Below, piece by piece: positions 8,726-26,826 of a stretch of 64,000 nt of DNA (position 1 is its first letter; every line of letters begins with the position of its first letter). The stretch lies in assembly GCA_022729235.1 (NCBI GenBank), contig JALDAJ010000001.1:800001-864000 (forward strand), read 5' to 3'. The DNA comes from Candidatus Nanohalarchaeota archaeon (GTDB lineage Archaea > Nanohalarchaeota > Nanosalinia > Nanosalinales > Nanosalinaceae). Below the pieces are notes generated by a model. That model was not told where the DNA came from and searched no databases. It saw only the letters and a program-made list of their open reading frames with translations. A program made the translations under genes and the position numbers.

Positions 8726-9229
8726 CTACTCGAACGAGAGTTCGTAGTCAGTTCCGGTAACCCAGTTGATTATCTTCTCGAACTCGTCTGTTGATAGGTT
8801 GATCTTGCCCTCGTAGCTTTCATCGACTACTATCTTCTGGTGTTCTCCGTCCGGTTTGAAGACGGTGTTGATGGATTCTACTTCTGCGGGCGATAGCAGT
8901 CCTTTGATGACTTCCATATCGCTCTCTGCTGCCTCAACTACTCTTATCGATTTCTCTATCCTATCCGCCAGTTCTTTGACTATCTCCCCGTTTCTACCGA
9001 CGACCTTTGCACCATCACCCTCTGCAGTTATCACAGCTACCACGTTTTCCATGTCAAATACTTTCTTGATTTCTGAGTCTTTCAGGGAACCGTAGTCAGT
9101 GGAAAGGTCCTGGAGTATCCGGGAGATTTTGATGTCGATTTCGTCTATTTCTGCCTCGTCGAGCTTCTCCTCGCATCCTGAACAGAGCTGGTCGCTCTTG
9201 AGACATACGTTACAGATTGGAGCCTTCAT
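8726..9229 (-). CDS. Archaeal NusA-like KH protein with N-terminal zinc motif
   Basis: MKAPICNVCLKSDQLCSGC plus KH VVGRNG motif. Confidence 0.88.
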   Translation of the reverse strand: MKAPICNVCLKSDQLCSGCEEKLDEAEIDEIDIKISRILQDLSTDYGSLKDSEIKKVFDMENVVAVITAEGDGAKVVGRNGEIVKELADRIEKSIRVVEAAESDMEVIKGLLSPAEVESINTVFKPDGEHQKIVVDESYEGKINLSTDEFEKIINWVTGTDYELSFE

Positions 9230-10073: not shown

Positions 10074-11144
10074 CTACTTCATGACTTCCAGTCCCAGGTC
10101 GTTGACGTCACCTGATACCTCTGTTTCGGTTTCCTCTTCCACGTCTCCGAGGATGTAAGGTGATTCAACCCCGGTTACGATGGATATGACCTGTATTTTA
10201 CCTTCAAGCTGTTCTTTCACTCTCGCACCCCATATCACCTGGGCGTGGTCGTCGAGGTTGCCCTGGACTGTCTGACCGACGTCGTTGATCTCGTTGAGCG
10301 TCAGATCCTGTCCTCCAGCTACATGGATTAGAGCTCCGTTGGCGTCCTCAAAGCTGACGTCAAGTAGTGGGTTGGATAATGCTTCGTGGATCGCTTCTTC
10401 TCCTTTGTTATTCGTATCTGATTCTCCGTATCCTACTACTGCTACTCCTCCCTGGTTCATCACTGCTCTTACGTCTGCATAGTCCAGATTGACGAGGGAC
10501 GGCTTGGAGATAGTTTCTGTAACGCCTTTTATCATCGTAGTTATGAGTTCATCCGCGACTCCGAACGCCTGGTCAAGAGGCATGTCGCCTGCGATGTCGA
10601 GCAGTCGGTCGTTTTCGATTACAATCGCGGTGTCGACATGCTGTCTCATCCGGTATAAGCCGTCTTCTGCCTTGGACATTCTTGCTCCTTCTATCTCGAA
10701 AGGCATTGTAACGGTTCCGATTACGATGCAGTCTTCTTTCTTTGCGATTTCTGCTAGTACAGGTGCGGCACCAGTACCTGTTCCTCCGCCAAGTCCGCAG
10801 GTTACAAAGACCATGTCTGCGTCAGCGAATAATTTTCTTAGTTCCGCACGGTTCTCTTCCGCGCTTCTCTCACCTTTTTGAGGGTGTCCTCCTGCACCGA
10901 GACCCTTTGTCAGGTCACGTCCGATGAGTATCTTTCTATCGGCGCTGGAAATTTCCAGGTGCTGTTTATCGGTATTGATAGCTACAGTCTCGGCACCGTC
11001 AACATTCTTTTTCTGGATGCGCGTTACCTGGTTGTTGCCGGCTCCGCCGACTCCTACAACCAATATTTTAGCATCTTTAACATCCTCTAGGTTAGAGGTT
11101 TTAGCCTGTTCTTGGGATTGCGTGTTGTTGATTATGGATTCCAT
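10074..11144 (-). CDS. ftsZ: Cell division protein FtsZ
   Basis: [17 protein letters not shown] and NLDYAD signatures. Confidence 0.98.
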
Positions 11145-11222
11145 CTTGTATCGTCCTGCGCGATAGCTATGCCTAACCTTTTTAAACCGGCATAGGTAAT
11201 TCTACCTTAGAACAAACGCAAT

Positions 11223-11339
11223 TGCCCAACTTACACGTATTCAAGCCCAATCGTCGATTCGAAGCCCAATTCGAATCATGTGATCCAACTCGCGCCCAAA
11301 CGAGTTCGATCCGAGTCGTTTCACGGCCCAACGTGAAAC
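11223..11339. repeat. Array of five GCCCAA/TTGGGC motifs, three in perfect stem-loop loops
   Basis: gattcgaa-GCCCAA-ttcgaatc; aactcg-cGCCCAAa-cgagtt; gtttcacg-GCCCAA-cgtgaaac. Confidence 0.75.
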
Positions 11340-11430
11340 AATCTGAGCTTATACTAGTACATTTTCTAGCCCGGTTTATAAATGTTACTTCTGTATCGTG
11401 TTCTATCGATGTTCACGAGTTCTGAACACT

Positions 11431-11448
11431 AACTGTTCATGAACAGTT
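11431..11448. promoter_or_regulatory. Perfect 18-bp palindrome upstream of gatC (putative operator)
   Basis: AACTGTTCATGAACAGTT within a cluster of TGTTC/GAACA motifs. Confidence 0.5.
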
Positions 11449-11500
11449 CATGCTACTGGTTTTGGAATGATACAAAAAGATTCGCTGTAACTCATGGTAC

Positions 11501-11779
11501 ATGGTCGATCAGGAGGAGGTTCAAGGAGTCGCGGAGAACGCACGGCTGAACTTGACTGAAGACGAGGCGGAAGAGTTTACCGAGGACTTCGAGTCGATCC
11601 TGGAGATGTTTGAGACCCTGGATCAGGTTGATACTGATGATGTGGAGCCGGCGTTCCATCCTGTCGAAGTGGAACCCGAGACCAGGGAGGACAGGAAAGA
11701 AGTTGGTCTTTCCCATGACGAGGTCTTCCAGAACACGGATAATGTGGAAGACAATAAATTCAAGGGTCCTTCAGTTTAA
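11501..11779 (+). CDS. gatC: Asp/Glu-tRNA amidotransferase subunit C
   Basis: VAENARLNL...RED...FKGP pattern, near gatA and gatB. Confidence 0.93.
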   Translation: MVDQEEVQGVAENARLNLTEDEAEEFTEDFESILEMFETLDQVDTDDVEPAFHPVEVEPETREDRKEVGLSHDEVFQNTDNVEDNKFKGPSV

Positions 11780-11782
11780 GGT

Positions 11783-12274
11783 ATGAAACTCGGAATAATC
11801 TCTGACACCCACGACAACCTCGACTTGACGCGTGAAGCTATAGATTTCTTTGAAGAACAGGAGACTGACGCAGTTGTCCATTGCGGTGACATGGTCGCGC
11901 CTTTTACTGCAGAGCTTTTCGACCGCGACAGCTTCGACTTCTACGCGGTCAGGGGTAACAACGACGGTGAGTGGAACCTGAAGTCGACTGTCCATGCGTT
12001 CGGCGAGTTTTTCAATAACGTGGCAGAGCTCGAGCTCTCCGGTAAGAGTATTGCGGTATATCACGGGACAGAAGAGTCTATCGTTGATTCCCTGGTTCTA
12101 TCCGGTGAGTACGATTACGTGCTCCGCGGACACACGCATGAGAAAAAATTGAGGGAGGAGAACGGTACTATAGAAGTTAATCCTGGCGGTATCAAGCTTC
12201 CTGGTAGTGAAGAGGAGTTCCACGTTGCCACGCTGGATCTGGAGTCGGGCGAGATAGAGTTTCATAAGGTGTAG
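11783..12274 (+). CDS. Metallophosphoesterase (YfcE/MJ0936 family)
   Basis: ISDTHDN, HCGD, GNND, GHTH and NPG motifs. Confidence 0.93.
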   Translation: MKLGIISDTHDNLDLTREAIDFFEEQETDAVVHCGDMVAPFTAELFDRDSFDFYAVRGNNDGEWNLKSTVHAFGEFFNNVAELELSGKSIAVYHGTEESIVDSLVLSGEYDYVLRGHTHEKKLREENGTIEVNPGGIKLPGSEEEFHVATLDLESGEIEFHKV

Positions 12275-13448
12275 AGGTGTAGGATTCTTCAAGGAGTTCG
12301 ACCATTGAAACAGGAGGTCTGTTGCGCTCCTCCGGGTCTGCCTCTTCGAGTAGCTGTTTTAGATCTGCCTGGTGCTGCGCTCCTGCGATAACCCATATCT
12401 CATCTTCTCCAGCATCCCAGCTCTTTCTCAATGCCTTATTGTGCATGTATTTCGATCGTTCCCAGCTGACGATAGGGCGGAAGCCGCGTGAGGCTTTCTT
12501 GAACATGAGACGTTTCTTCTTGAGTTTCAGGATCTGGTTACGGTACCAATCTGCAACATGACCGGTCACACCTCGTGGGTTATAGTTTCTTGATGCCTGT
12601 ATCTTCTCGTTGAGAACGGTTTCTTGTTCTCTTACTTCGCCAAGTCTCTTGTCCCAGTAGTCCTGCCTGAAACGCAGCGGTAACTGCATGTCCTTGATGT
12701 AAGCCTGTGTTCTCGGGATCTCTCGCGGGTCGTTTAGACCCCGATAGGCGGATCTGACAGGTGTGATGGTTCTGCCTTCCCTATCCTGGCGTTCAGCCTG
12801 CTTGACAGCTGACTCTGCAATAGGTCCCAGAACGTGGTTTAAAAACGGTTTCATCAGGAACTTGACGCCTAGCCGTGCTCCCTTTCCGAACAACATGCCC
12901 TGGTCATCCAGCAATTTCCTGTCGTCAAGCTCGATGACTTGTTCGCTGTCCTCAAAATGATTGTTGAAAAGTACGTCATCGAACCCATCTTCTAGGTATA
13001 CCTGACCTCTGTCAGCCATTCTCTCAATTTCTTCTCTCAGGTAGTCCCTGGTTTCATCACCCATCTTAAGGAAACCCCGTTGCCCGTGCGGGATACCAGC
13101 CACGTTCAGATCTACGTCTAGGACCTGGTTTTCACGACTCATATGCAGGTTATACTGGTCGCAAGGCAGACTGTATGTGTCTGATAGAAGCGGTATCTCT
13201 CGATTTCTGAGCTTCCAGATATCCTCTTCTGCAGCTTGGAAAAGCTTACGTACTGATTCGAATTCGAAACCTTTCTGCCTGTAAATAGTTTCCAGATCGT
13301 CTAAATCGTTTGCCTCGCTGAAATCATTCTGCTGGAGTACAGGTTCTTCCCTTGATTCTATCTCCTCCAGTCCTGCCTCCTCTGGTTGCGAAGCACTTTC
13401 TAGAGTTCTGGTCTCTGGCATGATACCATGGGCATCCCCGTACCTCAA
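12192..13448 (-). CDS. Hypothetical protein, possible TraB/Tiki-like fold
   Basis: GIPH, LE, ERSKYM and WVIAGAQH resemble TraB-like motifs. Confidence 0.5.
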   Translation of the reverse strand: MRYGDAHGIMPETRTLESASQPEEAGLEEIESREEPVLQQNDFSEANDLDDLETIYRQKGFEFESVRKLFQAAEEDIWKLRNREIPLLSDTYSLPCDQYNLHMSRENQVLDVDLNVAGIPHGQRGFLKMGDETRDYLREEIERMADRGQVYLEDGFDDVLFNNHFEDSEQVIELDDRKLLDDQGMLFGKGARLGVKFLMKPFLNHVLGPIAESAVKQAERQDREGRTITPVRSAYRGLNDPREIPRTQAYIKDMQLPLRFRQDYWDKRLGEVREQETVLNEKIQASRNYNPRGVTGHVADWYRNQILKLKKKRLMFKKASRGFRPIVSWERSKYMHNKALRKSWDAGEDEIWVIAGAQHQADLKQLLEEADPEERNRPPVSMVELLEESYTSTPYETLSRPTPDPAWQRGTPLHYQEA

Positions 13449-26195: not shown

Positions 26196-26508
26196 ACTTT
26201 CTGGTCCTCTATAGTCCGGACTAACCTCTATTTACCCAAAATTTTCTTCCTGATATAGGACTCCTGGAGGTTTTAAGCTGTCTATGAACTTTTTCTGAAA
26301 TAATTAAACGATTAAAAACAATTATTAGGCGTATTAAACGGTTATAAACAGTTATTAACGGAAAAACCCTTTTAAACAGGTTTTTACAATGGAAGAGCGT
26401 GGTTGAAATCATGAATGCTTTGAAGAATGCGGTTGAACAGGTAGCTGAACTCAAAAACCCTGAAAAAGAACTTAAAATAGAATCTGACTGTTTAAAAGGT
26501 CTGGAACG

Positions 26509-26826
26509 ATGAGCAGAGGATTTAGAAATCTTTTCATAAATCTTGAACCTGTTAAAATTCTTTTGACAGTTCGCAAGCAGAAAAAGATATCTGTTAAGGG
26601 GGCTAGCGAAAAGACAGGGGTTAGCCAGGATTACGCTCTTGATTCACTCGAGATGATGGCGGAGAACGGGCTGGTTAGGCGAGAAGACGAGGGTTACCTC
26701 ATCACCCCGTACGGAAAGTCGCTCTCAGAAAGTCTTCTGTTATTCCTTGATCTGGCGGAGAAAGTTGAGATACAGGAAGGCATGGTGAGCGAGCATGGTC
26801 TCGCGTTTATGGAGGGGAGACTATGA
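26509..26826 (+). CDS. Winged-HTH transcriptional regulator
   Basis: ASEKTGVSQDYALDSLEMMAENGLV...YLITPYG. Confidence 0.75.
   Translation: MSRGFRNLFINLEPVKILLTVRKQKKISVKGASEKTGVSQDYALDSLEMMAENGLVRREDEGYLITPYGKSLSESLLLFLDLAEKVEIQEGMVSEHGLAFMEGRL

Follow-up and report, generated by a model that had tools for sequence, protein, structure and literature searches.

How is the main division gene of a nanohaloarchaeon controlled? The question is raised by a short intergenic array in the 64,000-nucleotide stretch analysed here (the window: positions 800,001 to 864,000 of the forward strand of contig JALDAJ010000001.1, assembly GCA_022729235.1, from a Candidatus Nanohalarchaeota archaeon). The divergent genes ftsZ (minus strand) and gatC (plus strand) are separated by a gap of 356 nt, in which the hexamer GCCCAA occurs on the plus strand at 11224, 11245, 11264, 11294 and 11326, i.e. 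five times in 108 nt (11224-11331). The cells of DPANN archaea are tiny and have to grow in step with a host, and to our knowledge almost nothing is known of how their division is regulated; we also know of very few structured regulatory RNAs or DNA elements in archaea. The comparisons below indicate that the array is most likely a phylum-wide, single-copy ftsZ control element, about 140 nt in size, made of three to six hairpins that share a CCC-containing loop.

A reading of the letters alone (the sequence-only reading) had reported five GCCCAA copies in about 110 bp, three of them capping perfect 6-8 bp stems of differing sequence, with TATA-like boxes on either side. All of these were located: the copy placed at about 11263 actually starts at 11264, the three capped stems are the hairpins H1 to H3, and the boxes lie at 11179-11186 and 11375-11382. 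The array consists of the following parts.

11224-11229 and 11245-11250, plus strand: an unpaired pair of GCCCAA copies, whose equivalents are hairpin loops in some other genera.
11256-11263 / 11270-11277, plus strand: hairpin H1, an 8-bp stem with the loop GCCCAA; all 8 of the 8 pairs of this helix 1 have changed on both sides among relatives.
11287-11292 / 11301-11306, plus strand: core of hairpin H2, 6 bp, perfect, with the loop CGCCCAAA.
11318-11325 / 11332-11339, plus strand: hairpin H3, an 8-bp stem with the loop GCCCAA; 6 of the 6 modelled pairs of this helix 3 covary.

The stem sequences of the three hairpins are unrelated to one another. H2, the most conserved of them, can be extended to 11282-11311, giving 11 positions with one C.C mismatch. 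In the clade of the window the stems of the first two copies have been lost and the motif has been retained.

The element is found in front of ftsZ throughout the relatives compared, which were records labelled Nanohaloarchaea, Nanosalina or Nanohalobium (the phylum set comprised the same 70 genomes as the order set). Orthologues of ftsZ, 70-92% identical, are present in 40 of the 40 relatives searched; the intergenic DNA retains 79% identity across some 270 nt in another genus, and it has matches at E <= 1e-8 in 19 of 24 genomes of the same family. In a first set of 30 ftsZ loci, 26 have at least two upstream GCCCAA copies, always on the strand opposite ftsZ, and the remaining four carry TCCCAA or TCCCAC in its place. 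The exact H2 pattern occurs in 34 of the 70 genomes (once in 33 and twice, on two contigs, in one), and a reversed H2 control pattern gave no match in the same 70. The sequence-only reading had proposed a covariance-model search of the ftsZ upstream regions of relatives, and had named the absence of motif and stems from related genomes, together with a lack of transcript or protein binding, as what would speak against it. The model, R1, built from 20 sequences, instead finds the element conserved: it matches the window and 45 of 54 named loci, always on the opposite strand to ftsZ and at a distance of 90-270 nt upstream, with one additional weak mirror match, and it matches 39 of the 70 genomes of the phylum set at E <= 0.01. 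Motifs of the form [GT]CCC[AG] number three to eight per locus in the 330 nt upstream of ftsZ at all 54 named loci. One locus, L045 (JBLGBK010000009.1), comes from a record titled as a Colwellia polaris metagenome-assembled genome; it encodes a nanohaloarchaeal ftsZ (85% identical) with the upstream array, and the contig looks mis-binned or mislabelled.

Within the genome of the window (1,027,595 bp, a single contig, 95% complete) the array stands alone. GCCCAA is not enriched in the window overall, with 13 matches on both strands versus 16.4 in shuffles; the whole genome holds 58 GCCCAA and 70 TTGGGC, and the array is the sole cluster of at least three copies with gaps of at most 60 nt, the chance expectation of clusters of five in 108 nt being about 1e-8. 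The genome scan for GCCCAA-loop hairpins suggested by the sequence-only reading turned up only those of the array when stems of at least 5 bp were required; among 12 genomic clusters of at least three perfect hairpins, the array alone has a common loop motif; and R1 has one match in this genome. The second ftsZ paralogue (genome 488737-489849) is without such an array. A search of 10900-11700 against Rfam 15 returned no family at E <= 10, and ARAGORN found no tRNA in the array region. Two intergenic hairpins elsewhere are of note: an isolated one at genome 936886-936902, with a GCCCA loop and a 6-bp stem, is the sole other intergenic GCCC-loop hairpin to have a loop like those of the array, and one at genome 555654 has a GCCCCGG loop.

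Are the hairpins themselves what selection has kept? Base pairs were counted in 46 matches of the R1-fitted alignment (1021 cells in 24 pairs), an alignment that is fitted with a plus-strand model and leans towards structure. Standard pairs make up 90.9% of the cells, versus 68.5 +/- 0.9% in shuffles and 23-44% in slid controls; changes on both sides are seen in 23 of the 24 pairs; and double-change cells number 238 versus 69.8 +/- 7.3 in shuffles, with none of 500 shuffles reaching 238. A hairpin finder independent of the model, run on 59 distinct upstream regions, returned 180 CCC-loop hairpins and only three GGG-loop hairpins on the same strand. The hairpins are under selection as structures, and the selection on loop plus structure proposed by the sequence-only reading is borne out by the covariation of the stems.

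Compensatory change of this kind is not required by duplex sites, and this bears on the simplest account of the repeats, in which GCCCAA would be a direct-repeat operator for a transcription factor and the flanking palindromes would be incidental. In the window the copies are spaced by 21, 19, 30 and 32 nt, near whole helical turns, as such an operator might have; the spacings of relatives are unphased (e.g. 27, 36, 45, 46, 8 and 38 nt). With the covariation in 23 of 24 pairs added, we consider this account very improbable.

The loops carry a strict polarity. On the plus strand of the array, CCC occurs 306 times versus 12 for GGG across the 59 loci, and the loop variants by locus are GCCC only in 40, TCCC only in seven, and mixed or other in 12. 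This pattern points to a trans-acting factor that would read the CCC/GGG loop motif, because the base preceding CCC changes in concert among the copies of a genome, and because the polarity is strict and the motif is retained in the clade of the window where stems have been lost. The invariant core is exactly CCC/GGG, and GGG- and CCC-rich words are generally scarce in the genome, both of which would also suit a G-quadruplex or i-motif switch formed by the five sense-strand GGG tracts in a potassium-rich cytoplasm. The spacers between tracts, at 16-29 nt, are not canonical short loops, however; some relatives have only three tracts; and the covarying stems put the G tracts into hairpin loops, which compete with such a structure. 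Such a switch is among the least probable explanations that we considered.

Which strand, and which nucleic acid, carries the function? If one RNA strand were functional, G.U pairs on that strand should far exceed A.C pairs. In the pairs of the hairpin finder (n = 1396) there are 17 G.T, 19 A.C and 13 other mismatches, and in the R1 alignment (n = 1021) there are 46 G.T, 43 A.C and 50 other mismatches, despite the fit to a plus-strand model. Since G.T and A.C are equally rare, no single RNA strand is identified, and pairing seems to be constrained on both strands, or in DNA. For orientation, G.U makes up 24 of 335 bracketed pairs in the tRNA stems of the genome (ARAGORN brackets of 15 tRNAs, which cannot show A.C). 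ARAGORN lists only these 15 tRNA genes in the 1.03-Mb genome, the first with an odd acceptor stem, and many tRNAs of this genome probably contain introns or are atypical in some other way.

The equal rarity of G.T and A.C (46 versus 43; 17 versus 19) is what a DNA pairing constraint predicts, and it opens the way to the main rival of the reading that we favour below. In this rival, the array would act as DNA: small cruciforms, or hairpins in single strands that negative supercoiling between the divergent ftsZ and gatC units has opened, would present CCC loops on one strand to a protein that sets the activity of the ftsZ promoter, and a transcript of the array would be unneeded. The location directly upstream of the ftsZ-proximal TATA box in a divergent intergenic region suits it, as do the strict motif polarity, the concerted variants and the presence of one copy per genome. 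Its stems of 6-9 bp, with loops of 4-8 nt, are short for stable cruciforms, however, and no such archaeal protein was identified in this analysis. It is the main rival because it explains the absence of strand bias equally well, though not the inward promoters to which we now turn; on balance we hold it to be somewhat unlikely.

Promoter-like sites were sought with a position weight matrix (PWM) learned from 544 upstream regions of long open reading frames (ORFs) of the genome, of which 326 sequences were used. The matrix shows AA at -34/-33, T from -30 to -27, A from -26 to -24, T at -20, AA at -11/-10 and a pyrimidine at -1, and 241 of the 326 modelled regions place the TATA box as for leaderless mRNAs. 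The interval 11100-11560 was scanned; the top 0.1% of background begins at 7.7 bits, and all starts given here are PWM predictions.

11157, minus strand: predicted start P1, 4.2 bits, a weak ftsZ-proximal reading pointing outward from the array.
11179-11186, plus strand: proximal TATA box TTTTTAAA, within the best conserved 45-nt block (about 11168-11216).
11207-11213, plus strand: conserved TTAGAAC, holding the predicted plus-strand start 11209 at a T/A junction.
11209, plus strand: predicted start P3, 11.5 bits, from the proximal TATA box into the array.
11348-11367, minus strand: conserved CTTA together with ACATTTTCT, holding the predicted minus-strand start 11352.
11352, minus strand: predicted start P2, 11.8 bits, from the distal TATA box through the array to ftsZ.
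11375-11386, minus strand: distal TATA box TTTATAAA with a conserved ATGTT flank, promoter P2; on the minus strand the flank reads as an A-rich B recognition element (BRE).
11405, plus strand: predicted start P4, 10.6 bits, from the distal TATA box outward.
11501, plus strand: predicted start of the gatC promoter, 8.2 bits, leaderless.

Both of the boxes thus score highest when read inward. Among the 59 distinct relatives the median scores are 4.3 bits for P1, 11.6 for P3, 13.8 for P2 and 8.1 for P4; P3 outscores P1 in 58 of the 59, and P2 outscores P4 in 54 of them. A repeat scan of the 59 loci, over ranges chosen independently of the hairpins, placed both inward sites above 7.7 bits in 54. 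Between the two predicted starts fall 270 of the 301 motifs, the first lying a median of 18 nt past the plus-strand start and the last ending a median of 23 nt before the minus-strand start, and the predicted transcripts overlap by a median of 159 nt (range 127-268). The DNA-level account leaves these inward sites, found in 54 of 59 loci a median of 18-23 nt outside the outermost motif, unexplained. The sequence-only reading had taken TTTATAAA to be placed for a minus-strand transcript, and the PWM start at 11352 and the conservation of the site agree with that placement; its suggestion of a long ftsZ leader is made plausible by the same conserved P2 site and stands as a prediction.

Near the proximal box, a blastn comparison confines the core conserved in other genera to query positions 24-72. 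Throughout the family alignment the pentamer TAGAA is unchanged, and in most loci the predicted plus-strand start falls on it. The best conserved block also holds, at 11190-11213, two small palindromes, AGGTA-ATTC-TACCT and TTCTA-CCT-TAGAA. TAGAA may be a protein site or a mini-hairpin, beyond a mere start site, because it is kept in L036 and L037, where the inward promoter is weak. At the distal end, ACATTTTCT forms the A-rich -10 region of P2 on the minus strand; on the plus strand it reads as a run of four T that could end a plus-strand RNA. In L068 (Nanosalina sp. VS9-1 by its record title) the distal TATA box and gatC are separated by a minus-strand gene of 472 aa; the distal TATA box remains with the array there, gatC keeps its own promoter, and L088 is similar. 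A distal promoter running into ftsZ is supported because the distal TATA box remains with the array in these two loci. Beyond the distal box, TGTTCA/TGAACA boxes, direct and inverted, occupy 11398-11452, and among them 11431-11448 is a perfect palindrome of 18 bp. Many relatives conserve these boxes, which in L088 accompany the distal TATA box and not gatC; they are probably transcription-factor sites upstream of P2.

These observations could be read as the work of the sense strand only, the array then being the 5' part of a long ftsZ leader, on whose UUGGGC loops a protein would control translation or mRNA stability. P2 is conserved and remains with the array, and between the array and the ftsZ ATG the minus-strand RNA has no run of at least five U in any of 55 loci. 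At the gene end of the putative leader lies the following site.

11150-11157, minus strand: Shine-Dalgarno-like AGGACGAT, 6-13 nt before the ftsZ ATG.

By eye, a purine-rich (A)GGnnGAT or GGAG-like motif recurs here in the majority of the 59 relatives, and the 16S 3' end of the genome carries CCUCC; with most modelled promoters being leaderless, a Shine-Dalgarno-like motif suits a leadered ftsZ mRNA. Copies of the array motif stand unpaired between the hairpins as well, a feature of protein-binding RNAs, and the loop variants change in concert within a genome. With the sense strand acting alone, however, G.U (A.C on the plus strand) should exceed A.C (G.T on the plus strand) and does not, and the strong inward P3, with its median of 11.6 bits, would be a coincidence; we judge this explanation unlikely.

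The converse is a stand-alone plus-strand small RNA (sRNA) of about 150-260 nt from the proximal TATA box, the five GCCCAA motifs of which would either titrate a C-rich-loop-binding protein, as a functional analogue of CsrB, or base-pair to G-rich targets. At 11.5 bits P3 is strong, its T/A start at TAGAA is conserved, the motif is repeated in both loops and linkers, and the plus-strand RNA folds well (-39.6 kcal/mol, z = -3.99), with the three hairpins forming. A KH-domain gene (8726-9229, minus strand) that could supply the titrated protein is syntenic with ftsZ in 37 of 54 loci; its family is widespread, however, and is not ftsZ-linked in other families that retain the array. The genome is without a CsrA gene, the wobble counts show no strand bias, TTGGGC is not concentrated at start codons, and a purely trans-acting RNA leaves the strict phylum-wide linkage to ftsZ unexplained. 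In our estimate a stand-alone sRNA is quite unlikely. A set of trans targets was looked for separately and dropped: of the 70 TTGGGC sites in the genome nine lie near starts, which is no enrichment, and many of the start-proximal copies of GCCCAA are Met-Pro codons.

We lean towards the view that at least one strand of the element functions as RNA. The form of this view that we favour, tentatively and as one possibility among several, is a pair of RNAs: a sense leader with UUGGGC loops and a cis-antisense RNA with GCCCAA loops. We favour the pair because it accounts for the Watson-Crick stems, for the inward promoters close on either side of the array and for its constant association with ftsZ. 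The distal promoter (TATA 11375-11382, start at about 11352, minus strand) would give an ftsZ mRNA with a leader of about 208 nt, whose first 140 nt would hold three UUGGGC-loop hairpins and two unpaired UUGGGC copies. The proximal TATA box (start at about 11209, plus strand) would give an RNA of about 150 nt, or at most about 260 nt, with full complementarity to the leader and with GCCCAA loops on the same hairpins. Transcription in the two directions would together set the amount of translatable ftsZ mRNA, by collision or occlusion of converging polymerases, by loop-loop pairing, or by both, and a trans-acting reader of the CCC/GGG loops would modulate the sense and antisense output. The transcription of either strand, the interaction of the two RNAs and the effect on FtsZ are what we infer. 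A 218-nt version of the sense leader folds at -66.2 kcal/mol with the three hairpins forming.

Several points weigh against the sense-antisense pair. Within this one genome, convergent sites of at least 10 bits, 100-300 nt apart, form nine pairs at five loci versus about 9.5 expected at random from the site counts; such pairs are no rarer than chance, and what is informative is solely that the pair is conserved. The two TATA boxes are almost palindromic, and the calls of orientation rest on few flank bits. It may be that ftsZ simply uses the proximal promoter, because P1, at 4.2 bits, exceeds the median of real gene upstream regions (-0.1). In the deep clade of L036 and L037 the inward proximal site scores 3.1-5.2 bits, yet TAGAA and the array persist. 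There is no conserved T5 terminator 3' of the array on the plus strand, only the T4 run at 11362-11365, and the whole minus-strand leader folds barely better than shuffles (z = -1.85). An antisense pair also needs no identical loops, and a reader or multivalent loop-loop contacts must be assumed for them. The motif YUNR (pyrimidine-U-N-purine), the loop motif of known kissing systems, is present in UUGGGC (as UUGG) and absent from the GUGGGA and CGGGCA variants.

Two possible structures around the array were dropped. A long-range helix closing the three hairpins, seen in single-sequence folds, is by eye not conserved in L010, and a palindrome flanking the proximal TATA box (11164-11173 / 11189-11198) is unconvincing as a structure, with only 254 of 364 cells Watson-Crick and no strand bias. 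The other places where convergent sites of at least 10 bits lie 100-300 nt apart with no long ORF are 26332-26527 of the window and 554419-554684, 988645-988812 and 1024677-1024867 of the genome; these four may hold small genes or small RNAs.

What might read the loops? The genes around the array are as follows.

8726-9229, minus strand: a 167-aa protein combining a zinc ribbon with a NusA-like KH domain (NCBIfam PRK06418, below cut-off).
10074..11144, minus strand: ftsZ, 356 aa, with the Pfam domains Tubulin and FtsZ_C.
11470..11779, plus strand: gatC (Pfam GatC), including its promoter ATACAAAAAG at 11470-11479, with ATG at 11501; a neighbour outside the element.

PCBP and hnRNP K use their KH domains to bind single strands that contain CCC, and the 167-aa KH protein is a candidate loop reader, if a weak one. 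Its gene is the one that lies two genes downstream of ftsZ in the 37 of 54 loci; its full-length matches show 64-80% identity. The protein is present in 39 of 41 genomes and is a second KH_5 protein of this genome, the canonical NusA being at genome 598 kb. In other families the gene is not beside ftsZ though the array is present, and its type family also matches in Sulfolobus.

No description of the array was found in the literature searched or in Rfam 15, and the known systems that it resembles are functional analogues rather than relatives: plasmid and Shigella cis-antisense RNAs, StfZ, the CsrB sponges and the CdrS site. ColE1 RNA I/RNA II and R1 CopA/CopT are cis-antisense stem-loop control systems. 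RnaG/icsA of Shigella is reported as another (PMC2879508). As predicted here, the array would share with all three of them a pair of convergent promoters about 150 nt apart, complementary stem-loops in the two transcripts and a gene's 5' leader as the target, and its stems are Watson-Crick on both strands, as expected of a cis-antisense stem-loop regulator. The three differ in being bacterial or plasmid-borne, in that their transcripts are proven and in that their loops are mutually different, whereas the loops of the array are alike; no archaeal cis-antisense example of this architecture was found in the literature searched. StfZ is reported (PMC9628754) as a cis-antisense RNA to the ftsZ mRNA of Escherichia coli and is proposed to tune the FtsZ level. 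Like the predicted plus-strand RNA of the array, it is an antisense RNA from the region directly upstream of ftsZ; unlike it, StfZ is bacterial, is unrelated in sequence and structure and has no array of repeated-loop hairpins.

The sequence-only reading had drawn an analogy with CsrB/RsmZ. As family membership this fails: there is no GGA motif, no CsrA gene (a search of the genome with the Pfam CsrA model gave no match at E <= 1) and no Rfam match. The likeness is that CsrB/RsmZ sponges too show one short motif in hairpins and single-stranded copies, suggesting one reader. The differences are that CsrB and RsmX/Y/Z display GGA (ANGGA) and the array GCCCAA/UUGGGC, and that the array is archaeal, is fixed beside one gene, has stems that avoid G.U as much as A.C, and has transcripts that are predicted only.

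An archaeal precedent for an ftsZ-specific upstream control site is that of CdrS in Haloferax volcanii, where the protein recognises a single symmetric motif in duplex DNA, some 50 nt upstream of the ftsZ1 start (PMC8406309). Compared by description, that site differs in being a single duplex motif with no covarying hairpin set. Eukaryotes offer C-rich single-strand promoter elements bound by KH proteins, namely the CT element of c-myc bound by hnRNP K and FUSE bound by FBP. They resemble the array in having a CCC strand upstream of a growth-control gene, with a KH gene syntenic here in one family, and differ in being eukaryotic and without hairpin presentation. A conserved 266-nt intergenic sRNA of a nanohaloarchaeon (STRG.4577.1) is reported in PMC7002113, the main text of which gives no sequence; it may or may not be the array, and its report is a point in favour of the stand-alone plus-strand sRNA.

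A bolder proposal, to which we give little credence, is that nanohaloarchaeal division is timed or dosed by an RNA device of a kind undescribed in archaea: sense and antisense RNAs would bear mirror-image GGG/CCC hairpin arrays, and FtsZ synthesis would be set by multivalent loop-loop contacts or by a dedicated loop-reading protein that the array titrates. A DPANN lineage that depends on a host would then have, at its division gene, an archaeal equivalent both of the RNAs that control plasmid copy number and of sponges of the CsrB type. A sharply defined, strongly covarying element at the main division gene is a direct experimental handle; a factor that reads the CCC/GGG loops could prove to be a new archaeal FtsZ regulator, and R1 could seed a new RNA-family entry.

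Two further explanations were weighed on genomic grounds. The sequence-only reading had suggested a link to replication; the only Cdc6_C match (the Orc1/Cdc6 locus) is at genome 399046-399315 and the minimum of the cumulative GC skew is at 397301, i.e. at 397-399 kb, versus 811224-811339 for the array, and we reject an origin here. The array was also compared with methylation-site clusters such as those of GATC or GANTC at cell-cycle promoters; no sign was seen that GCCCAA is avoided as a restriction or methylation word, the hexamer not being depleted beyond its sub-words (128 seen versus 104.9 expected). For comparison, the nanohaloarchaeal methylome study consulted (PMC11001535) reports only GDGCHC.

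Two observations lie apart from the array. Beyond gatC, at 12192-13448 (minus strand), lies a 418-aa acidic ORF that matches nothing in Pfam or NCBIfam; it shares about 80 nt with the 3' end of the metallophosphoesterase gene (11783-12274). Among genomic words, the rarest hexamers contain GGCC (GGCCCC 16, GGGCCC 20), and CTCGAG occurs 402 times versus 755 expected; the scarcity of both suggests restriction-site avoidance.

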